From an uncultured Bacteroidales bacterium (GTDB lineage: Bacteria; Bacteroidota; Bacteroidia; Bacteroidales; ML635J-15): a stretch of 64,000 bases of DNA. How positions within the stretch are numbered: position 1 is the first letter of the stretch; every line of letters starts with the position of its first letter. A program made the position numbers and the translations under genes. A model generated the notes under the pieces. The model was given only the letters and a program-made list of their open reading frames with translations, was not told the origin of the DNA and did not search any database. The stretch is taken from contig CAJOIT010000007.1 in assembly GCA_905234755.1 (NCBI GenBank), positions 50-64,049 on the forward strand, given 5' to 3'. This document shows, one piece after another, positions 11,286 through 23,068 of the stretch.

Positions 11286-11367
11286 CAAAAGGAAATTGTG
11301 TGGGTCGGTAATTTGAGAAATGCAGTAAGAGAAAGATAAGTTGCGATATTTTATTCCTTTCAAATTC

Positions 11368-11499
11368 GGAATAAGTGGTTATTTTATAGTGCTAAAAAAT
11401 GGAATAAGTGGTAAAATTCACCTCCTCAAAAACGGAATAAGTTGTAATTTTTACCCCTTAAAAAATGGAATAAGTGGTTTTTTGTTTTGCAAAAGCAAA
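11368..11499 (+). repeat. Four direct repeats phased every 33 bp, core GGAATAAGTGGT preceded by an A-tract
   Basis: Cores start at 11368, 11401, 11434 (ggaataagttgt) and 11467, exactly 33 nt apart. The last unit abuts the -33 TTTG and the -7 box TAtcTTTG (11509-11516) of the ATPase gene. Confidence 0.9.
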
Positions 11500-11536
11500 A
11501 GAATGATTTATCTTTGTGGCATAAAATTATTGTAAA

Positions 11537-12904
11537 ATGCTCGAAAGAAAATTTACACAATATTTGGAGGACTTCATAGAGAACGAACCTAATAAAATAC
11601 TGTTAGTCAATGGCGCTAGGCAGATAGGAAAGTCATACATAATACGCTATGTAGGGAAGAAACTTTTTAAGCATTTTGTTGAGATAAACCTCAAGGAAGA
11701 CAAAGAGGGCGAGCAAATTTTTGCCGATGTTCAGACCACAAGCGACTTGTATATGCGGCTAAGCAACTATCATTCAAAGCATTTGGGAGACAAGACGGAC
11801 ACCCTTATCTTCCTTGACGAGATACAAAGCTACCCTCACCTCATGACTATGCTAAAATTCCTTAACGAAGAAGGAAAATACCGCTACATTGCAAGCGGTT
11901 CGCAACTTGGTGTAGCATTGTCGCAAACGCCATCGGTCCCTATCGGCAGCATCACAATAAAACAGATGTATCCGCTTGATTTTGAGGAATTCCTCTGGGC
12001 TACGGGCATTGGAAAAGAATGGATAGACCACATAAGAGAATCGTTCCAGAAGGAAGAAAGTCTGGATAAAAGCACCCACGAGTTGCTGCTTAAGCGATTC
12101 CAGTATTACCTGCTTATTGGCGGTTTGCCCGAAGCCGTTAACAAGTATTTGGAGGACAGAAATATAGTGCGCGTAAGGACAGTTCACAAGGACATCCACG
12201 AACTATATCGCATCGATGCTTCGCAATACGACGAGGAACACAAACTGAAGATTCGCAGGATTTACGACCTGATTCCAAGTAATCTGGAGAACAAGAAGAA
12301 GCGTGTGGTTTATAACAAGATTGAAAACAAGACTGGCAAGCACTTTTCCGACTATGCCGACGAATTTGAATACCTTACCAATTCGGGCGTTGCATTAGAT
12401 GTGTTGGCAATCAGCAATCCGCGTTTCCCCTTGGCGGAATCGGAGCAAAAACGACTTGTAAAATTGTACCTGAACGACATCGGGCTGCTCACTAACCTTC
12501 TTTATGGTCTCAATGTCAATGCAGTGTTGCAGGACATCAGAAGTATAAATCTCGGAACTGTTTATGAATCTGCCGTAGCACAGGAACTTGCAGCCCACCA
12601 GTTCAAACTTCATTATTACGACAACAAGCAAAAAGGCGAAGTTGATTTTCTGATAGACGACTACAATCGGCTTCAGGTATTGCCTTTGGAAATAAAATCG
12701 GGCAAGGACTACACCGAGCATAGTGCGCTGACAAAATTCCTTGAGACGCCCGAATATGGAATCGGCAGGGCAATAGTCTTTTCTAACGAACAGCAAGTTT
12801 ACAAAAAGAAGGGCGTTACCTATATGCCTATCTATTACTGCATGTTCCTTCAAAACTCATCTGACAACGACACTATAATTTTGCCGGAATTGGAATCTGT
12901 TTAG
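11537..12904 (+). CDS. AAA+ ATPase, AAA_14/DUF4143 family
   Basis: 455 aa. It has Walker A NGARQIGKS and Walker B LIFLDEIQ, with the long C-terminal region typical of DUF4143 ATPases. Confidence 0.8.
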   Translation: MLERKFTQYLEDFIENEPNKILLVNGARQIGKSYIIRYVGKKLFKHFVEINLKEDKEGEQIFADVQTTSDLYMRLSNYHSKHLGDKTDTLIFLDEIQSYPHLMTMLKFLNEEGKYRYIASGSQLGVALSQTPSVPIGSITIKQMYPLDFEEFLWATGIGKEWIDHIRESFQKEESLDKSTHELLLKRFQYYLLIGGLPEAVNKYLEDRNIVRVRTVHKDIHELYRIDASQYDEEHKLKIRRIYDLIPSNLENKKKRVVYNKIENKTGKHFSDYADEFEYLTNSGVALDVLAISNPRFPLAESEQKRLVKLYLNDIGLLTNLLYGLNVNAVLQDIRSINLGTVYESAVAQELAAHQFKLHYYDNKQKGEVDFLIDDYNRLQVLPLEIKSGKDYTEHSALTKFLETPEYGIGRAIVFSNEQQVYKKKGVTYMPIYYCMFLQNSSDNDTIILPELESV

Positions 12905-13083
12905 ACGGACTGCTGACCATTAGTATTGGCTCGTTAATCCAGTAAATACAGTTGGGAGGCCATAGGTTGCGATATTATACTCAACTCGCTGTTGAATAAG
13001 GCTGTGGAGTACGCGATGGAGATGTATTGATTTTCTGATAATTGTTTGTATTACAACAATTTGAATAATTTATTACTCTTTCC

Positions 13084-13165
13084 AAAAACGGAATAAGTGG
13101 TAATTTTTACCCCTCAAAAAATGGAATAAGTGTTTTTTTGTTTTGAAAAAGCGTTTATCTATATC
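13084..13165 (+). repeat. Second copy of the last two 33-bp units plus a decayed promoter (duplicate of 11429-11516)
   Basis: aaaaacggaataagtggtaatttttacccctcaaaaaatggaataagtgtttttttgttttgaaaaagc is near-identical to 11429-11495. Cores at 13090 and 13123 are again 33 nt apart. The -7 box is degenerate (tatctata). Confidence 0.85.
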
Positions 13166-13225
13166 CGAACATTATATTGTTTAAAACTAAACTCGCCTTT
13201 TGTTGTGTTTTATTATAATAATAAG

Positions 13226-13233
13226 TATGTTTG
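13226..13233 (+). promoter_or_regulatory. -7 promoter box (TAtgTTTG) for the five-gene operon
   Basis: Exact TAnnTTTG match 25 nt upstream of the ATG at 13258. Confidence 0.5.
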
Positions 13234-13257
13234 CAGTTTGGAATAATTTGCATAGAG

Positions 13258-14349
13258 ATGTCGGATGTGGTAAAAAATAAAAGGCAAGGGAAACTTCCTA
13301 AAATAGAAGTCGTTGATCTCTTTTGCGGGATTGGCGGTCTTAGTTATGGAATGAAGTCAGCTGGTTTTGATATTCGTGCTGGATATGATTTGGATTGGAC
13401 CTGCCAATATGCATACGAAACAAATACAGGAGGAAAGTTTTTTTATAAAGATGTTAATTCTGTGACAGGAGATGAAATAAAAAAACTATATTCAAAAAAG
13501 AAAAATATCATTAGAGTTCTTGCTGGTTGTGCCCCTTGTCAGCCATTTTCTTCGTATGCATTTAAAAACAAGAAAAAGGACGAAAACAAATATAATCTAT
13601 TATATGAATTTGGACGGTTAGTGAAAGAAGTTCATCCAGACATTGTTACAATGGAAAATGTGCCTGCCATTGCTTCTTTTAAATTAAAATCTGTCTTGTC
13701 TGATTTTGTGAACACTTTAAAATCAGAAAATTACGAAGTGTCCTATAAAGTAGTTTACTGTCCTAATTATGGCGTTCCGCAAACGAGAAAGCGCATGGTC
13801 TTATTGGCTTCGAGATTAGGAGAAATTGAGTTGATACCACCAACACATTCAAAAGACAACTACGTAACCGTGAAAGACGCAATCGGGAATCTTCCAGCGT
13901 TAGCAGCAGGAGAAAGTTGTTCTTCCGATCCGTTGCACAGATGTCGAGCCTTATCCCCTTTGAATAAGCAGAGAATGTTAGCAACACCTTATGGTGGAAG
14001 TTGGAGGGATTGGCCGGAAGAATTACTTTTGGAATGCCATAAGAAGGAAGAAGGCAAGAGCTTCGGTAGTGTATATGGACGAATGGTATGGGAGGAACCT
14101 GCGCCGACAATGACAACCCTTTGTACAGGTATTGGTAACGGGCGTTTTGGACACCCAGAACAAAACAGAGCCATCTCTGCTAGAGAAGCAGCATTGTTCC
14201 AGACATTTCCTACATCCTATAAGTTTTTTCCTGATGAGCAGAGTGTTTCTCTGTCAAAAGCATCTCGATATATCGGGAATGCCGTACCGCCCAGATTAGG
14301 CGAAATAATTGCAGAAAGTATAAAACAACATATTAGAACACACAAATAG
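13258..14349 (+). CDS. DNA (cytosine-5)-methyltransferase (MTase 1)
   Basis: m5C MTase motifs are present: I DLFCGIGG, IV PCQPFS, VI ENV, VIII QTRKR, X GNAVPP. The start is moved to ATG 13258 because the track's 13231 start lies inside the promoter box. Confidence 0.9.
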   Translation: MSDVVKNKRQGKLPKIEVVDLFCGIGGLSYGMKSAGFDIRAGYDLDWTCQYAYETNTGGKFFYKDVNSVTGDEIKKLYSKKKNIIRVLAGCAPCQPFSSYAFKNKKKDENKYNLLYEFGRLVKEVHPDIVTMENVPAIASFKLKSVLSDFVNTLKSENYEVSYKVVYCPNYGVPQTRKRMVLLASRLGEIELIPPTHSKDNYVTVKDAIGNLPALAAGESCSSDPLHRCRALSPLNKQRMLATPYGGSWRDWPEELLLECHKKEEGKSFGSVYGRMVWEEPAPTMTTLCTGIGNGRFGHPEQNRAISAREAALFQTFPTSYKFFPDEQSVSLSKASRYIGNAVPPRLGEIIAESIKQHIRTHK

Positions 14350-14351
14350 AA

Positions 14352-16460
14352 ATGGATGACGATCAAGTTTTAAAATGGCGATTTGATGTTAGCACATTCA
14401 GGTTAATTGGGCGGGATTTGATAACAGACCGAGTAACTGCTTTGTTTGAACTAGTGAAGAATTGTTATGATGCAAACGCGTCGGAGGCTACAATCATTTT
14501 TAATAATGTAGGTTTGGACAAAAAAGGAGAATCATCTATCTATATTAAAGACGATGGAATAGGTATGTCTTTTACAGATATCAAAGACAAATGGATGGTA
14601 ATAGGCACATCTAATAAACGTTCCAATCCATATAGCCCAGAGCCGTTTTCCCGGAAATGTGTGGGAGAAAAAGGAATTGGCCGATTTGCAGTAGATAAAT
14701 TAGGAGACAAAGTCAACATTATCACTAAACAAAAAAAAGGAAAACAATGGTTGAATGTTGAAATAGATTGGGAAGCATATTACAAACAGAGTTTTGAGAG
14801 TAATGAAATAAAACTCTTTACTGATATAGAAAACCATTACGAGTATTATGATTCCGAGGATATTAATGAGCATGGAACAACGCTGAAAATAACAAATATT
14901 AGGGAAATTTGGTTAGAAAATGACATAAAGCGCTTTATTGAAGAGGCGGGGAAACTAGTCTCTCCTTTTGCGAACATGAGTTATCCTATGCAAATCAAGG
15001 TTATTGCACCAGAATACGGCATAGAAACAATCGCAACTAAAAACATGGATGATGTTAGCATTGCTACCATCAGTTTTTCACTAGGTTTTGATATCACTTC
15101 TCAAACACAAGACAGTGCCTATTTTGATGAAGAGACAGGAGAAATAAAAATCCGAACTATTCCAATGAAGTCGTTTGGCGGGATTAAAATGAAAGTATAT
15201 TATTTTGATGAAGCCGCTCGTCGACGTTATCGTAAAGAATTTCCTAATAATCAAATAGATGGCGTAAAAATATATCGCGATAGTATTATTACCACTCCAT
15301 TTGCCGAAAATGAGTCTGAGGATGATAAGAAACGTGATGTTTTAGGAATTGACAAACGATTATGGATGAATATCTTTGATCGAGTAAGTACCCGAGAAAT
15401 CATAGGAATTGTTGAAATCACAAAAAAAGACAATCCAATGATCATTGACGCGACAAACAGGCAGGATTTTGTTGACAATGAACAATATCGCGACCTTAAA
15501 GAATTTATCATCACACAATTAGATGCAATTGAAGGTTATAAAAAGTATTCAAGGAAAAAGAAAAGAAAAGAAAACAGCAACACATTAGAATCCGCTGGTC
15601 AAGAGATTCAAAGCTTTATTTCCTCAGTAGAGAATATTGCCGAACAAAACCCTAATCTAAAAGACAGTCTTGCTCCTGTAGTTGAGCAAGCCAAGAAGAC
15701 CGGAAAAGCAGTAAGAACTGCAATTAAAGAAAAGAAAGAAGCGGAAGAAGAGTTTGCGCGAAAAGAGAGTGTTTATATGAGTATTATGTCTTTGCAAGAA
15801 TATGCAATTCATATTACACATGCTGTCCGTACCACATTGAATAAAATCCGTGATAGGGTTGAATATTTTAACATGTTCTATCCAGATCCTACGGAAGAAG
15901 ATATATTTAAGCGTTACGCAAAAGAAATGTATGTGGAATTTTTGAATGTTAATAAAGTGATAGATTATATGTTAAGTTATTCACAATCAAACATTCAACC
16001 CGAAGATATTGAACTTGATGAAACAATTCGCGAAATATTTGTCGAATATACGCCATTGTTCAACTCCAATGGAATCAAAACAGATCTTATTATCCCTGAA
16101 AAGATAATGCTTAGGAACACCCGTCGACAGTTTTTTAGAGATATCTTGCAAAACCTTATTGACAATTCCATTAAAGCCGTAAGAGATGCCGAACAAAAAA
16201 TAATTCGTTGTACGGTATCAGTCGAAAAAGAAGAATTAATAATTCTGTTATCTGATACGGGAAATGGAATCCCACAAGAAAAAAGAACATGGGTTTTTGG
16301 AGTTTATAATACAACCACCCAAGATCAAGGTGGTGCTGGCATAGGTTTATACATTGTAAAAACAAGGGTGGAATCTTTAAAAGGAAAAGTATTTGTAACA
16401 GATAGTGAGTTTGGTGAAATTGGTACAACAATAAGAATCGAATTACCATTTAAAAAATAA
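14352..16460 (+). CDS. Dual-GHKL protein: N-terminal MORC/Hsp90-like ATPase (HATPase_c_3-like) fused to a HisKA-like H-box and a histidine-kinase ATPase
   Basis: 702 aa. N-terminal Bergerat motifs are ELVKNCYDA, DDGIGM and GEKGIGRFA. A lysine/glutamate-rich coiled region follows. The H-box is ITHAVRTTL (His490, codon 15819-15821; compare SHELRTPL). The C-terminal kinase motifs are the N-box NLIDNSIKA, G1 DTGNGIP and G2 GGAGIGLYIV. No TM segments were seen. Confidence 0.7.
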   Translation: MDDDQVLKWRFDVSTFRLIGRDLITDRVTALFELVKNCYDANASEATIIFNNVGLDKKGESSIYIKDDGIGMSFTDIKDKWMVIGTSNKRSNPYSPEPFSRKCVGEKGIGRFAVDKLGDKVNIITKQKKGKQWLNVEIDWEAYYKQSFESNEIKLFTDIENHYEYYDSEDINEHGTTLKITNIREIWLENDIKRFIEEAGKLVSPFANMSYPMQIKVIAPEYGIETIATKNMDDVSIATISFSLGFDITSQTQDSAYFDEETGEIKIRTIPMKSFGGIKMKVYYFDEAARRRYRKEFPNNQIDGVKIYRDSIITTPFAENESEDDKKRDVLGIDKRLWMNIFDRVSTREIIGIVEITKKDNPMIIDATNRQDFVDNEQYRDLKEFIITQLDAIEGYKKYSRKKKRKENSNTLESAGQEIQSFISSVENIAEQNPNLKDSLAPVVEQAKKTGKAVRTAIKEKKEAEEEFARKESVYMSIMSLQEYAIHITHAVRTTLNKIRDRVEYFNMFYPDPTEEDIFKRYAKEMYVEFLNVNKVIDYMLSYSQSNIQPEDIELDETIREIFVEYTPLFNSNGIKTDLIIPEKIMLRNTRRQFFRDILQNLIDNSIKAVRDAEQKIIRCTVSVEKEELIILLSDTGNGIPQEKRTWVFGVYNTTTQDQGGAGIGLYIVKTRVESLKGKVFVTDSEFGEIGTTIRIELPFKK

Positions 16461-16465
16461 ACAGT

Positions 16466-17083
16466 ATGAATTATAACTTGGTATTTATTGATGACAATAT
16501 GAGAGAAGGATTAGACAATCCTTTCGTACGATCAATAGGTAAATTCAAGGAGGATGCAAAACTATCGGTATTCGTAGATCCACAAGAAGGATTGAACTAT
16601 GTTCTAAACAATTTGAACTGTAGAATGATAGTTTTTCTTGATTGCAAATTTGACGGATACGGATTACAAGGTATAAATGTTCTAAAAAAAATCCGTGAAC
16701 AAACCTCCTTGTTATACATTGTGATGATGTCTGCTAATGCAATAAGTCAAATAGCGGGATTGGACATAATTGAAATGATAAACGAAGACTTTATTTGGTT
16801 CTTTGATCGCAATAACGGAACGGTTAAGGATGCGTGCGATTTAATTGATAAAATTAAAAACTTGTGGACAACACGTTTTGATTGTGTGCTTGAACAATGG
16901 ATTCTCCGACATCCTGAAGATGCTGATAAATATGCTTATAGAGAACTTGGTGGCAAATCTTATACATGGTCAGAAATGTTGTCAGAATTGCGACATCAAT
17001 CTGCCGTGGGCAAGGTGTTTGAGGGGATGGTGAATGATTATTATATATATCGTTTTACAAAATTGGAAGATTCAAATGGCTAA
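16466..17083 (+). CDS. Receiver (REC)-domain protein with uncharacterised ~80-aa C-terminal domain
   Basis: 205 aa. It has the beta1 acidic pair VFIDDN, a phospho-acceptor-like Asp59 in VFLDCKFDG (codon 16640-16642), and a beta4 Ser/Ala MMSANA. I could not see a DNA-binding output domain. Confidence 0.6.
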   Translation: MNYNLVFIDDNMREGLDNPFVRSIGKFKEDAKLSVFVDPQEGLNYVLNNLNCRMIVFLDCKFDGYGLQGINVLKKIREQTSLLYIVMMSANAISQIAGLDIIEMINEDFIWFFDRNNGTVKDACDLIDKIKNLWTTRFDCVLEQWILRHPEDADKYAYRELGGKSYTWSEMLSELRHQSAVGKVFEGMVNDYYIYRFTKLEDSNG

Positions 17084-17672
17084 TGTCTTGATTGCTTGTA
17101 ACAATGCTGATTCTGTAGATTTACATAATTTTCTACAATCTTGTGCTGATTTGGCTAGACAACAATGTGTGGACTTCAATCATAATTATTCTTTTGTAGA
17201 ACCACCTCATTTAACAGAACAAGAAGTGATATCTCCAATGCCATATCATCAAATTTGTTTAATTGCGGCTCATGGTGACGCTGATGGTGTGTATAATGAA
17301 AATCATGAAGATGTTGTAACAACTAGAACAATCAATTATAATTTTGAAGGCAAGGGGTTTTATTCTGTGTCATGTTTGTGCGCTCAAAATTTGCGTATAG
17401 AACTTATGCGAATAGGGTTGAAGTTGTTTGTTGGCTATAATATCCCTTTTTGTGTAGGAGATGATGAAGATTTGTTTTGCGAATGCGCATTGGAAGGTTT
17501 TAAGAGTATTCTTAATGGAAACTCAAAGAAGGTTGCGCACAAAGCAATGTTGGATAAATATGATGAAGTGATTAAGACTGCATCATTTGAAGATAAAATT
17601 AAATTGCTCCGAAATAAAGAACATCTTGTTTTTGATGGTGAAGATAATCTTTTGTTGTCCGATTTAATATAG
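17076..17672 (+). CDS. Small CHAT/caspase-like (clan CD-like) protein, putative
   Basis: 198 aa from ATG 17076, which overlaps the upstream stop as ATGGCTAA. A hydrophobic strand + His-Gly (ICLIAAHGD) and a hydrophobic strand + Ser/Leu-Cys (FYSVSCLCA) are spaced like the clan CD dyad. The following LKLFVGYNIPFCVGDDEDLF...GFKSILNGNSKKVAHKAM resembles the post-Cys region of CHAT domains. Confidence 0.4.
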   Translation: MANVLIACNNADSVDLHNFLQSCADLARQQCVDFNHNYSFVEPPHLTEQEVISPMPYHQICLIAAHGDADGVYNENHEDVVTTRTINYNFEGKGFYSVSCLCAQNLRIELMRIGLKLFVGYNIPFCVGDDEDLFCECALEGFKSILNGNSKKVAHKAMLDKYDEVIKTASFEDKIKLLRNKEHLVFDGEDNLLLSDLI

Positions 17673-17676
17673 CAAC

Positions 17677-18357
17677 ATGGACTGGCGATTAGATAACATT
17701 TGTGTATATTGTGGAGCCCCAGCAGATACTCTGGATCATGTTCCTTCAAAATGTTTCTTAGATGAACCATATCCTAAGAATCTGAGAAGTGTGCAATGCT
17801 GCGGAAAGTGTAATCATAAGTTTTCTTCCGATGAGGAGTATGTTTCTTGTCTAATAGATTGTATGAAAGAAAAAACAAAGAACCCTAATATGATAAAAAG
17901 GGAGAAAACAAGGAAAACTTTATTGCACTCTACTAAGTTATTAAAAAGAATAACAGGACAATTTCGAATGTTTGCTGACATTGAAGTTTGTGATATAGAG
18001 AAGAGTCGTTTGGAATTAGTTATGTACAAATTGGCTTTTGGACATTTGGCTTATGAGAATAATTCTATAAATTGGGATTCAGAATATAAAGTAGATATGT
18101 GGTTGTTAGAAAATATGTCTAAACCTTTATTGAATGATTTTGAAACGCCATATTATGGAGATGTTGTTCCTGAAATTGGTAGTAATAGTTTGTCTCACAT
18201 TCTTGTTGGATTAGACGATTATGTAAATTATAGTAATTGGATAGTGGTTCAGGATGGAAGATATAGGTATTGCGTTTCTCCTGATAGCACAACAGTAAAA
18301 TTTGTAATCGCAGAGTATTTGGCAGTAGAAGTATCAGTTAAAGGCGATAAAAATTAA
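17677..18357 (+). CDS. HNH endonuclease-domain protein
   Basis: 226 aa. The N-terminal treble-clef HNH reads CVYCG..ADTLDHVPSK...CCGKCNHKF. The C-terminal ~150 aa are unassigned. Confidence 0.65.
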   Translation: MDWRLDNICVYCGAPADTLDHVPSKCFLDEPYPKNLRSVQCCGKCNHKFSSDEEYVSCLIDCMKEKTKNPNMIKREKTRKTLLHSTKLLKRITGQFRMFADIEVCDIEKSRLELVMYKLAFGHLAYENNSINWDSEYKVDMWLLENMSKPLLNDFETPYYGDVVPEIGSNSLSHILVGLDDYVNYSNWIVVQDGRYRYCVSPDSTTVKFVIAEYLAVEVSVKGDKN

Positions 18358-18435: not shown

Positions 18436-18443
18436 TATATTTG
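18436..18443 (+). promoter_or_regulatory. -7 promoter box (TAtaTTTG) for the second MTase/REase cassette
   Basis: Exact TAnnTTTG match 21 nt upstream of ATG 18464. Confidence 0.5.
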
Positions 18444-18463: not shown

Positions 18464-19525
18464 ATGACAAATAAAAAATATAAAGTTTTGGATTTATTCT
18501 GTGGTTGCGGAGGTTTGTCTAAAGGCTACGAAATGGCTGGGTATGACATTTTATTAGGAGTTGATTTTAATAAACCCGCGTTAGAGACATATCAGAAAAA
18601 TCACAAAGGAAGTAAAGCGTTGTATGCAGATTTGTCTGACGATAAAGCTTTTGACGAAATAGATAATGCAGTAAAAGGTAATAAAATAGATGTTGTCATC
18701 GGAGGTCCTCCCTGTCAAGGATTTAGTTTGACAGGGAGACGGCAATTTGATGATTCGCGGAACAAGTTGTACCTTGCTATGATTGAGGCTGTACGAAGAT
18801 ATAATCCCAAGGCGTTTATGATTGAAAATGTACCAGGAATGGCTACTCTGTATAATGGAGAAGTGAAGGCTGAAATTTTGAAACGCTTTACTGAAATGGG
18901 ATATAAAATGAATTTCAAGATAGTTTGTGCTGCTGATTATGGAGTTCCTCAAATGAGGCGGAGACTTGTTTTTATTGGAATAAAAGATTCTGAGCAAGAA
19001 TATCAGTTCCCGCAACCGTATTTGCTTCCAGACAATTATGTTACATGTAAAGATGCAATAAGTGATTTGCCGTCGTTAGTTGATGAGTTGGGAGATGAAA
19101 TATCATCTTATTCAGGAGAACCGCAAACCGATTATCAGAAAATGATGCGTGGAAACAATAAACTGTTGTATAATCATGTTGCTGTTAATCATAAGGATTT
19201 CGTAAAAGCTACGATTGCTCTAGTTCCAGATGGGGGCAATTATAAAGATTTGCCAGGAGGTGTCGGTGAAAGTAGAAAATTTCATGTTGCATGGACTCGT
19301 TATTGTAGTTATAAACCATCAGGCACAATAGATACTGGACATAGAAATCATTTTCATTATAAATGGAATCGTTGCCCAACAGTAAGAGAGAATGCAAGAT
19401 TACAATCTTTTCCAGATGATTTTGTATTTTATGGAAATAGGACACAACAGAATCGACAGGTTGGAAATGCAGTTCCTCCTTTAATGGCAAAGGCTATCGC
19501 AGAAGAATTAAAGAAGTATTTGTAG
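18464..19525 (+). CDS. DNA (cytosine-5)-methyltransferase (MTase 2)
   Basis: Motifs DLFCGCGG, PPCQGFS, ENVPG, QMRRR and GNAVPP. Confidence 0.9.
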   Translation: MTNKKYKVLDLFCGCGGLSKGYEMAGYDILLGVDFNKPALETYQKNHKGSKALYADLSDDKAFDEIDNAVKGNKIDVVIGGPPCQGFSLTGRRQFDDSRNKLYLAMIEAVRRYNPKAFMIENVPGMATLYNGEVKAEILKRFTEMGYKMNFKIVCAADYGVPQMRRRLVFIGIKDSEQEYQFPQPYLLPDNYVTCKDAISDLPSLVDELGDEISSYSGEPQTDYQKMMRGNNKLLYNHVAVNHKDFVKATIALVPDGGNYKDLPGGVGESRKFHVAWTRYCSYKPSGTIDTGHRNHFHYKWNRCPTVRENARLQSFPDDFVFYGNRTQQNRQVGNAVPPLMAKAIAEELKKYL

Positions 19526-19531
19526 TTTGTT

Positions 19532-20785
19532 ATGAAATTAAATACTATAGATTTATTTGCTGGTTGTGGTGGCATGACTGATGGGTTTGCTCAGGAAGGA
19601 CATTTCCGTGTACTTGGCTGTGTAGAATGGGAAGCTCCAATGTGTGAAACACTTATTAATCGCCTAAAAAACAAGTGGGGACATAATAATGCAAATAATG
19701 AAGTAATTAGATTCGATATTCAGAGAACGGAAGAACTATTTTCTGGATTTTTTGATGGAGAATATGGTATTCATAACGGACTTGATTCTTTGGTGAAAAA
19801 TCAAAAAGTAGATGCGATAATTGGCGGTCCACCATGTCAAGCCTATTCTATTGCAGGCAGGATAAGAGATGAAAATGGTATGCGAGATGATTATCGAAAT
19901 TTCCTTTTCGAAAGTTATATAAAGGTTGTGTCCCATTATCAGCCAGATTTTTTTGTATTTGAAAATGTTGTAGGATTATTAAGTGCTTCGCCAACAGGTG
20001 AGCCTATTACTAATATTATACGTAGAACATTTAGTGAGGCTGGATATAGAATTATATCAAATTTAAAGGATGCTCTTTTTGATGTTGCTGATTTTGGTGT
20101 TCCACAACATCGCCGTCGTGTAATTATTCTTGGAATACGAGAAGCGTCTTTTAATTGTGGACATGAAAACTTTATGGATGATAAGTGCAGTCAGATTTTA
20201 CAAGATTTTTACTATAATATAATGCCGTCATTTAAGACGAAACAATTTTCTACAGTTGAAGATGCAATAAATGATTTGCCTAAATTATTTCCTTCTGAAG
20301 AAATTATCAAATTTGATGGTAGGAAATATTCTCATTATCCAATAGATGGTGGTGGTTATTTAAATCACATTCCTCGTTTTCATAGTAAAAGAGATATAAA
20401 AGTATTCAGAATGTTAGCAGAAGATATAGAATCAGGAAAATTTGAATATGTGAGTACAGAAAAGTTAAAGAATTTATATACAGAAATTACAGGTAAGAAA
20501 AGCAATGTTCATAAATATTATGTTCTACGCAAAAATGCTCCTAGTAATACTATTCCTGCTCATTTATATAAAGATGGGATGCGTCATATACATCCTGATT
20601 CCAAACAAGCTCGTTCAATAACAGTAAGAGAAGCCGCTAGATTGCAGTCATTTGATGATGATTATTCTTTTCTTGGAGCAATGATGTCCCAGTACAAAAT
20701 GATTGGAAATGCTGTTCCTCCAAAATTTGCAAAAATTATTGCCAGTGGATTGTATAAACTTATTTTAAAATATAAAACAAAATAA
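19532..20785 (+). CDS. DNA (cytosine-5)-methyltransferase (MTase 3)
   Basis: Motifs DLFAGCGG, PPCQAYS, ENV, QHRRR and GNAVPP, with a long variable (TRD) region. Confidence 0.9.
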   Translation: MKLNTIDLFAGCGGMTDGFAQEGHFRVLGCVEWEAPMCETLINRLKNKWGHNNANNEVIRFDIQRTEELFSGFFDGEYGIHNGLDSLVKNQKVDAIIGGPPCQAYSIAGRIRDENGMRDDYRNFLFESYIKVVSHYQPDFFVFENVVGLLSASPTGEPITNIIRRTFSEAGYRIISNLKDALFDVADFGVPQHRRRVIILGIREASFNCGHENFMDDKCSQILQDFYYNIMPSFKTKQFSTVEDAINDLPKLFPSEEIIKFDGRKYSHYPIDGGGYLNHIPRFHSKRDIKVFRMLAEDIESGKFEYVSTEKLKNLYTEITGKKSNVHKYYVLRKNAPSNTIPAHLYKDGMRHIHPDSKQARSITVREAARLQSFDDDYSFLGAMMSQYKMIGNAVPPKFAKIIASGLYKLILKYKTK

Positions 20786-20789
20786 AAGT

Positions 20790-21812
20790 ATGTCACAGTA
20801 TTATATTCATAAAGTTGGAAGTCAAGAAATGGGTTCTGTGGAACGAAATAATGGTGTGCCACAGCGTGGACGTTACTTTCTTATATCAAAAAGATGTTTA
20901 GATTTTTTCCCGCATCTTTCTTCTGTTGCATTGAATGATAAGGCGCCAGTGTTTATTGTGCCGACATTCGCAGAAAATAATATCAAAGTGCTTTGCACAA
21001 TAGATTATCATAATCAGAAACATTCGCTTATTGATTATTCTGGGAATAATCCTCGTGATGAAGTTCGATTGTATATGAATCAGCAAATAGACCCTAATTT
21101 ATATTTTAAAACAGATGACCTTGCTGTATTTGAAAGGTTTGTTATGGAAGGGGATGTTGTTTATTCGCTTACTCGTATAAGACCAATGGAAGAAGGGTAT
21201 GATTTTCTACTTCAACATTTATCATCGAATGACAGAGGTCCTTATTATTCAAATGCCATATATGATGGGGTTCTTGATTTTATTCAACAGCCTTTAATAA
21301 ATGAGGATACACCTATTGCTATAAGTACTGATGCTGAGGAATATTTGGAATCTGCGTCTTCTGATATACTATCACATGAAGATGACGAAACTGTGATTAT
21401 TGAGCAGCAAATGGGAGGTCAGTTGTTTAATAGTGTTACATTTCGCCAATTTGTCCTATTCGCTTATGATTATAAGTGTGCTATAACCCGAAAAGTTATC
21501 CGTTATAATGATTTATGTAATCTTGAAGCTGCGCACATTAAGCCTCAGGCTCATAATGGACAATTCTTACCATGCAATGGTATTGCAATGAGTCGCGATA
21601 TGCATTTTGCTTTTGATAAGGGATTTTTTACGATTGATCGCAATTATAATGTTTTGGTGGCTGATGTGTTAAGAGGTACTGATTTTTATAAGGAATATAA
21701 TGGTCTTAGGATATTTGTGCCTCAAGTTGATTATTATAAACCTAATATTGCATTTCTTGAATATCATCGTAGAAACATATTTCAAACATTTGCCCAAATA
21801 AGGCATTTGTAA
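20790..21812 (+). CDS. HNH_2-family restriction endonuclease with N-terminal putative DNA-binding domain
   Basis: 340 aa. The C-terminal block YKCAIT...LEAAHIKP...NGIAMSRDMHFAFDKGFFTID is the HNH_2 (PF13391-like) pattern seen in R-M nucleases. The N-terminal RGRYFLISK...FFPHL resembles B3/EcoRII-N-like effector domains (weak). Confidence 0.7.
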   Translation: MSQYYIHKVGSQEMGSVERNNGVPQRGRYFLISKRCLDFFPHLSSVALNDKAPVFIVPTFAENNIKVLCTIDYHNQKHSLIDYSGNNPRDEVRLYMNQQIDPNLYFKTDDLAVFERFVMEGDVVYSLTRIRPMEEGYDFLLQHLSSNDRGPYYSNAIYDGVLDFIQQPLINEDTPIAISTDAEEYLESASSDILSHEDDETVIIEQQMGGQLFNSVTFRQFVLFAYDYKCAITRKVIRYNDLCNLEAAHIKPQAHNGQFLPCNGIAMSRDMHFAFDKGFFTIDRNYNVLVADVLRGTDFYKEYNGLRIFVPQVDYYKPNIAFLEYHRRNIFQTFAQIRHL

Positions 21813-22030: not shown

Positions 22031-23068
22031 ATGACTAATGAGAATAGAAACATATTGCTAAAATTGCTTGAGCAACATCAAGAGTCAGGCATATCGGAGC
22101 AGATAGACTACAACAAATTCTATTTGTATTCCATTATCACGCATTCTACGGCTATAGAAGGCTCAACAGTTACTGAAGTTGAAGCTATTTTGCTTTTCGA
22201 CGAAGGTATTACAAGTAGCAAGCGCACAGTGGTCGAGCAGATGATGAACCTTGATTTAAAGGCAGCATACGAATATGGGATGCAATGGATTTTGCGTCAT
22301 GAACCAATTACGGTCGAATGGCTTGTCCTGCTTGCATCAAAAGTTATGGCTCGCACCGGTAGTGAGTATCATTCTGCAAGTGGAGACTTTTCTGCTGCAA
22401 AAGGTGAGTTGCGCAAACTGAATGTTACTGCAGGATTTGGCGGCAAGTCGTATATGTCGTATCAGAAAGTGCCAGCTCGTCTTGAAGCTTTTTGCGAAGA
22501 ATTGAACAGACGGAGAAAGGCAATTGACGTGTCGGATGTGAGCGCTATATACGACCTTAGTTTCTGGGCTCATTACGAATTGGTGACCATTCATCCGTGG
22601 GCAGATGGAAATGGCAGGATGAGTCGTTTGCTTATGAACCTGCTCCAGATTGAGTTTGGCGTTTTGCCGACCAAAGTGTTAAAAGAAGACAAGGAGGCAT
22701 ACATACAGGCACTAGTGGATACTCGCGAAAACGACGACATAAATATTTTTCTCGATTGTATGTCTCGCCTTCACATCGCTCATCTTCAGAGCGATATAAA
22801 GCAATACGAGGTGGCTTTGCAAGATGAAGTGGACAGAAAAGGTGGACAGAAAAAGCAAAAGGTGGACAGAAAAAGTGGACAGAAAACACGCGATGCCATT
22901 ATCGCTCTCATTTCTAGCAATCCGCACATTACTACAACCCAAATGTCTGAGTCGCTTGGAATCAACCGAAGTGCACTTTCAAAGCATATCAAGCGTATGC
23001 AGGAAGATGGTATCATCCGTCGTGTTGGACCCGACAAAGGCGGTTTCTGGGAGGTGATTAGCGATTGA
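22031..23068 (+). CDS. Fic/Fido-domain protein with C-terminal winged-helix domain
   Basis: It carries the Fic motif HPWADGNGRMSRLL (HxFx[DE]GNGR). The C-terminal HTH-like region is ITTTQMSESLGINRSALSKHIKRMQEDGII. Confidence 0.85.
   Translation: MTNENRNILLKLLEQHQESGISEQIDYNKFYLYSIITHSTAIEGSTVTEVEAILLFDEGITSSKRTVVEQMMNLDLKAAYEYGMQWILRHEPITVEWLVLLASKVMARTGSEYHSASGDFSAAKGELRKLNVTAGFGGKSYMSYQKVPARLEAFCEELNRRRKAIDVSDVSAIYDLSFWAHYELVTIHPWADGNGRMSRLLMNLLQIEFGVLPTKVLKEDKEAYIQALVDTRENDDINIFLDCMSRLHIAHLQSDIKQYEVALQDEVDRKGGQKKQKVDRKSGQKTRDAIIALISSNPHITTTQMSESLGINRSALSKHIKRMQEDGIIRRVGPDKGGFWEVISD
22829..22886 (+). repeat. Four copies of GTGGACAGAAAA inside the Fic linker
   Basis: Copies lie at 22829, 22842, 22862 and 22875. 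They encode VDRKGGQKKQKVDRKSGQK. Confidence 0.9.

Follow-up and report, generated by a model that had tools for sequence, protein, structure and literature searches.

A translationally coupled cassette of a cytosine methylase, a MORC-like histidine kinase, a receiver, and a caspase-fold protein in Bacteroidota: a candidate conflict system

The subject of this work is a cassette of four genes located in a stretch of 64,000 nucleotides (nt) from an uncultured Bacteroidales bacterium (contig CAJOIT010000007.1 of assembly GCA_905234755.1, positions 50 to 64,049 of the forward strand). This whole stretch is called the window; coordinates are window positions, and residue numbers are those of the window proteins. 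Five open reading frames (ORFs), designated A to E, follow one another on the plus strand (13231-14349, 14352-16460, 16466-17083, 17076-17672, and 17677-18357). The first four encode a C-5 cytosine DNA methyltransferase (A), a soluble protein that is predicted to join a MORC-type ATPase module to a histidine-kinase core (B), a receiver (C), and a minimal protein of the predicted caspase/CHAT fold, which is a candidate cysteine protease (D). Genes A-D almost certainly constitute one functional unit. They probably represent a conflict system, either of defence or of addiction, and the chances that they form a methylation-linked two-component immune (or addiction) system with a protease output, the phosphorelay mechanism included, seem to us about even.

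Conservation of the four-gene cassette

One genome per species was scanned for relatives of B, which were detected in 204 of the 185,579 representatives. The 80 loci that were kept, with identity of B to the window protein from 100% down to 43%, are the species-level sample to which the counts of loci refer. They span Bacteroidales, Flavobacteriales, Chitinophagales, Saprospiraceae, Sphingobacteriales, Cytophagales, and a few other groups. The Dcm gene adjoins B in all of them. Iterative profile searches against all ORFs revealed the order A-B-C-D on the same strand in 77 loci, and the three exceptions are contig ends.

The five ORFs of the window and their junctions (2 nt between A and B, 5 nt between B and C, an 8-nt overlap of C and D, and 4 nt between D and E) were found exactly as the first-pass annotation of this DNA had listed them. 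Across the family, the junction is at most 10 nt in 73 of 78 loci for A-B, in 75 of 78 for B-C, and in 77 of 78 for C-D, the identical 8-nt overlap of the latter pair being present in 38 loci. When the flanking ORFs of the 80 loci were clustered, no fifth conserved gene was found in more than 15 loci; the neighbours met most often are Vsr and AAA_5 pairs. Judging from these comparisons, the evolutionary unit is a set of four genes, A, B, C, and D, with near-obligatory translational coupling, which are inherited together. The earlier reading as a translationally coupled operon of a defence system is borne out in so far as the genes form a real module of conflict type, with strong conservation and tight coupling. 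The proposal that all five genes form the functional unit is not supported, as E stands beside the cassette in only two of the 80 loci and is frameshifted in near-identical copies.

The family is large. A word-indexed search for B returned 2202 matches, all of full length, and the family comprises more than 2,200 protein clusters at 90% identity; it is common in rumen and gut Bacteroidales. Database annotation of the cassette today consists of a 'sensor histidine kinase' and hypothetical proteins only. The mean column identity is about 59% for B, 42% for C, and 35% for D. The rapid divergence of D, the fastest of the three, fits an effector under arms-race pressure.

Domain architecture of the encoded proteins

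The product of gene B (14352-16460, plus strand) is 702 amino acids (aa) long, and no transmembrane segment is predicted in it. Residues 1-185 (14352-14906) form a GHKL (Bergerat) domain with the motifs E33/N37, D67xGxG71, G105EKGIGRF, and T176. Residues 189-356 (14916-15419) form an alpha/beta transducer (S5-like) domain, followed by a long helical hairpin (coiled coil, residues 377-477, 15480-15782) that joins the ATPase module to the kinase core. The latter consists of a DHp domain (residues 481-544, 15792-15983), where the phospho-acceptor His490 (codon 15819-15821) lies in an 'HAVRT' H-box, and a CA domain (residues 551-699, 16002-16448) with the N box N601/N605, the G1 box D635xGxG639, and the G2 box G660GxGxGL. 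The two Bergerat folds and the H-box, which had been read from the sequence of this protein, are borne out by the Pfam matches at both ends (HATPase_c_3, PF13589, E = 3e-22, at the N-terminus; HATPase_c, PF02518, E = 3e-24, at the C-terminus) and by the conservation, in 80 species, of both Bergerat sites, of 'HAVRT' with H490, and of the three boxes of the CA domain. Histidine-kinase models of NCBIfam cover residues 457-701, and phrog_6203 covers residues 18-427.

The AlphaFold2 model of B, with a predicted local distance difference test (pLDDT) score of 75, contains the helices 377-432 and 434-477, and its Foldseek matches fall into two classes. The first comprises histidine-kinase cores (HK853, WalK, CusS, ZraS), and the second comprises GHKL-plus-transducer modules (SMCHD1, MORC2-DNA, the N and M domains of Hsp90) aligned over 400-490 columns. 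On the basis of the second class, the middle part of B can be assigned to the MORC-type transducer domains, for which a profile search with residues 178-385 found no sequence relatives in the PDB; residues 385-470 match coiled-coil proteins only. The highest conservation of B is observed at residues ~300-375, in the loops YRDG..TPFAE, LGIDKR, and IIDATNRQDF, and the loops 316-343 and 367-374 have low pLDDT in the model. Unplaced loops of this kind in a predicted structure are typical of segments that become ordered on binding of ATP, a partner, or DNA. Taken together, B is predicted to be a cytoplasmic homologue of MORC/SMCHD1-type ATPases joined to a complete class I histidine-kinase core.

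The reading of B as a restriction enzyme was considered and rejected. The GHKL N-terminus does match the NCBIfam model of the BbrUII/HgiDII restriction enzyme N-terminus (E = 1e-20), but the similarity is limited to this part of the protein, and there is no nuclease fold among the Foldseek matches listed. The cassette is thus without a recognisable restriction endonuclease.

Gene C (16466-17083, plus strand) encodes a protein of 205 aa with a REC domain at about residues 1-120 and a family-specific C-terminal domain. Its score with the Pfam receiver model is 19.2 bits, which is under the gathering cutoff of 30.2. Searched against the PDB, the family profile matched 83 chains with a best E of 9e-7, and each of the 60 on the list is a response regulator or a receiver domain. 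The receiver hallmarks that had been noticed in this protein (the Asp pair, Asp59, and Ser) hold in the alignment with CheY (hhalign E = 7e-5), where D9/D10, D59 (codon 16640-16642), and S89 of C correspond to D12/D13, D57, and T87, and D10 and D59 are kept across ~80 species. C is thus a homologue of true receivers that matches CheY at four of the five hallmark residues, with a phospho-acceptor pocket predicted to be intact. Residues 120-205 form a conserved domain of about 85 residues with D139, E143, W145, R176, and G182; profile searches with it found no helix-turn-helix (HTH) and no Pfam or PDB relative.

Gene D (17076-17672, plus strand) encodes 198 aa. Its in-frame ATG 17076 lies inside the listed ORF 17034-17672, and the overlap with C is the 8-nt sequence ATGGCTAA. 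Searches of Pfam, PADLOC, NCBIfam, and PDB profiles revealed no sequence-level family or PDB relative of this protein. Its AlphaFold2 model is of high confidence (pLDDT 95.9, predicted template modelling score 0.92), and the best Foldseek match is SAVED-CHAT (E = 7e-7); gingipain R, caspase-4/11, separase, and Csx29 were also found. All of the top matches are clan CD enzymes. His66-Gly67 (17271-17276) follows the strand 60-65, and Cys100 (17373-17375) follows the strand 94-99. These three residues, together with three structural ones, are the only positions conserved in at least 95% of the sequences from 79 species, and the dyad is retained in a Stenotrophomonas homologue with an identity of just 17%. 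The CHAT-like character and the His-Gly/Cys dyad, first noted by eye, are therefore upheld by the clan CD structural matches and by this conservation. According to the model, D has a minimal caspase/CHAT (clan CD-like) fold with a conserved His-Gly...Cys dyad and is a candidate peptidase. HMMER found 675 representative clusters of the D family; among the 150 listed, fragments aside, nearly all proteins are stand-alone and ~195-217 aa in length.

Gene A is a Dcm-type methylase gene (PF00145, E = 4e-60; TIGR00675 above cutoff). The mechanical ORF begins at TTG 13231, and in its numbering the catalytic Cys of the PCQ motif is residue 103. It is more likely that the gene starts at ATG 13258, as called on the related contigs L092 and L094, which gives a C-5 cytosine DNA methyltransferase of 363 aa (13258-14349, plus strand). 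Motifs I, IV, VI, VIII, IX, and X and the target-recognition region are kept in 79 species. The latter region occupies residues ~270-330 (window ~14040-14220), and the species that share it belong to different orders. Family-wide conservation of a target-recognition region is unusual for methylases of restriction-modification (R-M) systems and suggests that one recognition sequence serves the whole family, co-evolving with a reader that is fixed.

Proposed mechanism and described systems

In the mechanism we propose, A would place its mark on the resident DNA at a single site shared by the whole family. B would use its MORC-like module to engage DNA, either foreign or unmodified, possibly reading the methylation state set by A, or the module would respond to another infection cue. 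ATP-driven N-terminal dimerisation of B would be carried along the coiled coil as far as the DHp bundle; B would autophosphorylate on His490 and pass the phosphate to Asp59 of C. C, which would be made stoichiometrically with D, would act as an adaptor: phosphorylation-driven dimerisation of REC might gather the D protomers and activate the protease, much as caspases are activated by induced proximity and SAVED-CHAT by filaments. D would then cleave host or phage targets, stopping the infection or the cell, and E would be an optional extra nuclease acquired by the sub-lineage of the window. The context of the cassette is that of a conflict system, with a low-GC island, a discrete block at 99% identity in two unrelated contexts, and Vsr, McrBC/LlaJI-like pairs, extra methylases, Fic, and integrases as neighbours. 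That C activates D directly rather than through transcription is held with less confidence than the assignment to conflict systems. The full statement, in which the reading of DNA, or of its methylation, by a MORC-like ATPase is converted by a phosphorelay into activation of a caspase-like protease, and in which the cassettes make up an unrecognised innate-immune family with R-M logic and no nuclease, is put forward tentatively, as less likely than not.

The nearest experimentally validated system is Ambrosia (bioRxiv 10.1101/2025.09.30.679545), which consists of an XRE regulator, an N6-adenine methylase, a HATPase kinase, a REC protein with a winged HTH (wHTH), and a type IV HNH protein, named AbrR-AbrA-AbrB-AbrC-AbrD. 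It protects Pseudomonas from phages, and all of its domains and the receiver Asp (D60; the D60A variant was tested) are required. Methylation by AbrA does not protect the phage, and the system is without host toxicity. The reporter fusions were induced on infection, and the authors favour transcriptional induction (bioRxiv 10.1101/2025.09.30.679545). No other experimentally validated system of this logic was found in the literature searched. Like the cassette, Ambrosia combines a methylase, a HATPase/histidine-kinase, and a receiver in one operon with no classical cognate restriction enzyme, and the receiver Asp occupies an almost identical position (D60 in AbrC, D59 in C). AbrB and AbrC are likened to B and C by domain description.

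The two also differ. Ambrosia has a HipB-like XRE regulator (AbrR) at the head of its operon, whereas no XRE/HTH_3 homologue is present beside the 80 species-level loci or in the window; an HTH_3 gene precedes the methylase only in the loci L001-L004. The methylase of Ambrosia is specific for N6-adenine, whereas A is a C5-cytosine enzyme. The Ambrosia receiver carries a wHTH, and none was detected in C by Pfam and PDB profile searches. The effector of Ambrosia is a type IV HNH protein, and there is no caspase-like protein, while the effector candidate of the cassette is D. Gene E does not belong to the type IV HNH_2 family of Ambrosia; the HNH_2 gene of the window encodes a different protein and lies 3 kb downstream, behind two other methylases. 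Finally, Ambrosia is gammaproteobacterial, while the cassette loci are mostly from Bacteroidota.

A pair similar to B and C was described in silico by Bellieny-Rabelo et al. in 2021 (PMC8011034). In 628 strains, these authors found a C5 methylase, a kinase with the HATPase_c_3+HEF_HK+HATPase_c architecture, and a Response_reg_2 protein, with examples that include Bacteroides, Flavobacterium, and Chryseobacterium, and they speculated about the regulation of R-M systems. Their pairs resemble the cassette in the upstream C5 methylase, the soluble HATPase_c_3+DHp+HATPase_c kinase, the adjacent receiver-like gene, and the Vsr, HNH_2, and R-M neighbours. The hallmark of HEF_HK is, however, a Glu or Asp after the phospho-His, whereas in B an Ala follows H490 and is at least 95% conserved in 80 species. 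The paper describes the pair and the methylase with no protease or fourth conserved gene, while the cassette has D. The models PF19191 and PF19192 gave no match at E <= 10 with B, C, or a related cassette on the locus L008 (discussed below), the presence of both models in the Pfam copy used being unconfirmed.

The N-terminal half of B also has known relatives. Iyer, Abhiman, and Aravind (2008, PMC2292703) defined paraMORC ATPases with the GHKL+S5 architecture, which are encoded in R-M operons alongside Vsr, HNH, and cytosine methylase genes. B shares with them the GHKL+S5 module with intact motifs, the position beside cytosine methylases and Vsr, and the structural matches to MORC2-DNA and SMCHD1. 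The paraMORCs were described with nucleases, helicases, or TIR domains as fusions or partners and with no kinase, receiver, or caspase partners, whereas B has a histidine-kinase core instead, which would feed a receiver and a protease. In VcSduA (PMC12137116), a paraMORC GHKL domain controls the Shedu nuclease. In VcSduA and B alike, the GHKL module is probably what regulates a defence effector or provides its sensing.

Among other defence systems, Detocs (DtcA kinase, DtcB buffer receiver, DtcC receiver-PNP) resembles the cassette in the use of a two-component phosphorelay for anti-phage signalling and in the receiver-linked effector. Unlike the cassette, it has no methylase, its sensor domain is different, and its nucleosidase is fused to a receiver; the cassette contains a methylase and a protease-like protein, with no PNP domain. 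The PADLOC models gave no match at E <= 0.01 with B, C, or D except for the N-terminal similarity to REase_II, and no Detocs match was obtained. On the whole locus, the PADLOC models of 2023 called only the methylases and this generic restriction-enzyme similarity, as the first-pass annotation had predicted. As for D, its best structural matches are SAVED-CHAT of CBASS (8tl0) and Csx29/Craspase of type III-E, with which it shares a His...Cys core of the clan CD type. These are immune effectors activated by oligomerisation or by a partner, whereas the proposed activator of D is a phosphorylated receiver. Furthermore, D is a bare core of 198 aa with no SAVED or TPR sensor domain and no sequence-level similarity to them. 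A classical type II R-M system, in turn, has a cognate restriction endonuclease; none is recognised in the cassette, and E is not conserved.

It had also been claimed that no named system has this gene set. This stands in part: the methylase, HATPase kinase, and receiver triad was already described in 2021 (PMC8011034), and its kind was validated in Ambrosia in 2025, while no version with a caspase-like effector and no paper on the gene set with a caspase/CHAT protein was found in the literature searched. A figure legend of DefensePredictor mentions a predicted but unvalidated system containing HATPase and REC domains, and from this legend its relation to the cassette could not be told. The feature that is apparently undescribed is the dedicated minimal caspase-like protease candidate, the gene of which is translationally coupled to that of a receiver in which no HTH was detected.

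If the proposal is correct, methylase-linked two-component defence systems would gain a new effector class, a receiver-controlled caspase-like protease, and their output end would be modular, with an HNH protein in Ambrosia, a protease here, and both in the window. Two-component signalling would for the first time be connected to proteolysis of the caspase type, in a family widespread in gut and environmental Bacteroidota and reaching Proteobacteria. The cassette would also provide a prokaryotic precedent for MORC proteins as signalling epigenetic sensors, not DNA compactors, and a tractable bacterial model for the way in which GHKL ATPases of the MORC type convert an epigenetic or DNA signal into a response. 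The activation of such a small caspase-fold enzyme (198 aa) could inform the evolution of caspases and CHAT proteins. Recognition of the cassette would improve the annotation of defence islands in microbiome genomes.

Several points weigh against this proposal. The case is built from sequence comparison and structure prediction, and a physical interaction of C and D is suggested by the overlap of their genes. In the predicted structure of D, the dyad is supported by the positions of His and Cys after consecutive strands. The canonical Lys of receiver strand beta5 is not placed in C, where the invariant Asn106 is located near the expected site, and the C-terminal domain of C may bind DNA. The finding that methylation by AbrA does not protect the phage weakens a simple self-marking role for A. 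In addition, given the wHTH of the Ambrosia receiver and the transcriptional induction favoured for that system, direct activation at the protein level may be wrong here.

The last two considerations lead to the main rival explanation, an Ambrosia-like transcriptional circuit, in which phosphorylated C induces the operon or its neighbours, and D (and E) act once expressed. Apart from AbrC with its wHTH and infection-induced reporter fusions, the R-M gene regulation suggested in 2021 (PMC8011034) and the conserved 85-residue domain of C speak for it. A further argument is provided by tandem repeats upstream of A in the lineage of the window. They belong to a composite repeat, a 21-nt element with 33-nt tandem units AAAAAYGGAATAAGTGG (6 copies versus 0.08 expected), which is present at 11336-11500 and 12962-13155. 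These repeats are not family-wide, and no conserved operator upstream of A emerged from them, the tandem repeats being found at 9 of 74 loci versus 5 expected. The composite repeat brackets and also precedes an unrelated gene (11537-12904, plus strand) encoding an AAA_14 + DUF4143 ATPase of the PADLOC candidate defence family PDC-S01 (near end-to-end match, E = 7e-185). No HTH and no Pfam or PDB relative was detected for the C-terminal domain of C, though the PDB is rich in DNA-binding domains of response regulators. Some control would still be required for an unregulated, free protease of the caspase-like kind, and the very tight coupling of C and D suggests a complex. On balance, a purely transcriptional circuit seems rather unlikely. 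The second copy of the composite repeat lies at the left edge (12981) of the block A-E discussed below, and the repeat might mark the boundary of the cassette, serve in recombination, or be a site of regulation shared within the defence island.

Regarding the promoter, the first-pass annotation placed a single box before the ORFs at 13226. A match to the -7 motif of the Bacteroidetes type, TATGTTTG, is indeed present at 13226-13233 (plus strand), 25 nt upstream of the likely start of A. It is a single match to TAnnTTTG, a motif that occurs 67 times in the window versus 65 expected, and at this chance frequency the box is weak evidence on its own. Scans for sigma-70 promoters and terminators gave counts at or below the shuffled expectation; Bacteroidetes promoters are outside these models.

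The accessory gene E, related cassettes, and genomic context

Gene E (17677-18357, plus strand) encodes 226 aa with an N-terminal HNH-like zinc finger (C9, C12, D20-H21, C42, C45, N46-H47). The HNH assignment made from the sequence holds as regards the motif, CxxC..DH..CxxCNH, which is invariant in the four homologues of E; the profile matches remain weak (PHROGs, E = 0.005-0.07, residues 4-57), and there is neither a Pfam match nor a sequence-level PDB relative. The two loci with E are that of the window's lineage and L030, and in the latter E is located upstream of A and not after D. Even among contigs with D 100% identical to that of the window, E is intact in L094 and L096 and frameshifted in L092, L093, and L095, where it is split into ORFs of 148 aa and 93 aa about 4 nt after D, while A-D are intact. 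This looks like ongoing decay of an accessory nuclease or an assembly error. A homologue with 76% identity is found beside a different cassette, in L103 (2379-7678), together with Dcm, a 757-aa paraMORC-kinase, and a 315-aa REC-like protein. The gene order of L103 is Ambrosia-like, with the E-type HNH in the effector position, and it is followed by Dcm, AAA_5, and a 692-aa protein.

The occurrence of E in few loci, its frameshifts, and its presence beside a different cassette make it an optional, lineage-specific accessory rather than a core gene, and by sequence comparison E-type nucleases are recurrent, optional partners of a wider paraMORC-kinase superfamily. One could suppose instead that the phosphorelay licenses E as the main effector, with D in a secondary or regulatory role, considering that E starts 4 nt after D in the lineage of the window, that E-type genes recur beside paraMORC-kinase cassettes in three arrangements (window, L030, L103), that the Ambrosia effector is an HNH protein, and that HNH genes in paraMORC1 operons were noted in 2008 (PMC2292703). 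However, E is absent from 78 of the 80 loci that keep A-D, it is frameshifted in contigs with identical D, its HNH assignment is based on weak matches, and it is outside the HNH_2 family of Ambrosia. Such a five-gene model is highly improbable.

Cassettes of a second type are related to those described above. In the loci L008-L011, a second cassette is located 1-2 kb downstream of the first one (~14.1-18.6 kb of L008) and contains an N6_N4 methylase, a 743-751-aa HATPase_c_3/HATPase_c protein, and a 381-aa protein, so that two paraMORC-kinase systems lie side by side. The 381-aa protein of L008 is remotely REC-like and shares the 'VLxxW' motif with C. This second cassette is followed by an LlaJI-like module (Dcm, a 236-aa protein, AAA_5, and RE_LlaJI). 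A B-like 'sensor histidine kinase' (aligned with B residues 7-393) is encoded by the Campylobacter coli plasmid pCCDM224L (L105) and by 42 other Campylobacter plasmid records. On these conjugative plasmids, genes for a 340-aa 'response regulator' and, in convergent orientation, dcm are found beside an AAA ATPase and HicAB; no C- or D-like proteins were detected on the plasmid cassette of L105. In general, second-type cassettes have an N6/N4 or C5 methylase, a 743-757-aa kinase, and a 315-381-aa receiver-like protein, and those of L008-L011 and the Campylobacter plasmids are without C- and D-like proteins. They resemble the pair published in 2021. The 381-aa (L008) and 315-aa (L103) proteins were considered as REC-D fusions, and this was rejected: neither contains a D-like domain, and their REC-like resemblance to C is no more than remote.

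The segment containing the cassette had been noted as AT-rich, and the GC content over 13-22 kb is indeed 0.32-0.38 versus 0.43-0.48 in the flanks. The low-GC island extends to ~22 kb, far past the five genes. Directly downstream, it contains an R-M-like module (18464-21812, plus strand) of two Dcm genes (18464-19525 and 19532-20785) and an HNH_2, phosphorothioate-restriction-like nuclease gene (20790-21812; NCBIfam NF045808, E = 1e-20). A second -7 box at 18436, 21 nt before the first of these methylase genes, speaks for separate transcription of this R-M-like module. They may represent a type IIS-like or modification-dependent R-M system. Two C5 methylase genes and HNH_2 types follow the cassette directly in L015 as well, in a different order; in all, HNH_2 homologues adjoin the cassette in two of the 80 loci. 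At the right edge of the island, a Fic + winged-helix protein is encoded (22031-23068, plus strand; PADLOC SoFic, E = 5e-30), and the PDC-S01 gene mentioned above flanks the island on the left.

No neighbouring gene is universal across the 80 loci. The commonest are McrB/LlaJI-like AAA_5 pairs (~16 loci), Vsr (15), extra Dcm genes (10-13), Fic (7), and integrases (6). The frequency of Vsr allows a housekeeping role to be considered, in which the MutL/MORC-like module with Dcm and Vsr serves epigenetic or DNA-repair signalling, that is, very-short-patch repair or methylation-dependent regulation. MutL stimulates Vsr repair in E. coli, a subject that is also discussed in the 2008 paper (PMC2292703). 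Nevertheless, Vsr accompanies most Dcm genes whatever the context, and it is not evident what a caspase-like output would do in repair. The patchy, horizontally mobile distribution (the 204 species representatives mentioned above, plus plasmids and islands), the low GC content of the cassette, and the fast evolution of D also do not fit, and we consider a housekeeping function very unlikely.

Mobility of the cassette is indicated by the block A-E (12981-18336, plus strand), which is 99.1% identical to a segment of the Bacteroidales UBA1184 contig DBYO01000010.1, the species representative matching B at 100%. In the blastn comparison of L012 with the window, only L012 8629-13986 aligned to 12981-18336, and the flanks are unrelated. 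A match of 5.36 kb with unrelated flanks means that the block is a discrete transferable segment. The possibility that the window is part of the UBA1184 contig was ruled out, as only this block matches. Different neighbours surround the cassette in L092-L097 too. A complete four-gene cassette is present on the Stenotrophomonas rhizophila plasmid CP031730.1 (L104), where B is 27.5% identical and the catalytic residues are kept. Two ORFs at 8126-9456 of L104, which follow a 'GHKL domain-containing protein' and have no PLSDB gene entry, are homologous to C (E = 2e-7) and to D (E = 5e-11), respectively; the cassette thus exists in Gammaproteobacteria. It was also found on two viral contigs. Carriage by phages was considered and rejected, with a relative on only 4 of 2.9 million viral contigs.

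This mobility bears on another alternative, a selfish addiction module, in which the sensor, relay, and protease watch host methylation and kill or arrest cells that lose the cassette (post-segregational killing), stabilising the island. The movement of the cassette as a discrete block between contexts and its presence on plasmids and near integrases would suit such a module. For a cassette with a methylase but no nuclease, a sensor of methylation loss is a natural reading, and the family-wide target-recognition region of A is as expected if it matches a fixed reader in B. Addiction is not distinguishable from defence by sequence, and classical R-M systems do both; the closest validated relative, Ambrosia, protects against phage without host toxicity. 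Addiction in place of phage defence is regarded as unlikely.

The sole Rfam match in the window is a cobalamin riboswitch (RF00174, 91 bits) at 402-579 on the plus strand, which is unrelated to the cassette.

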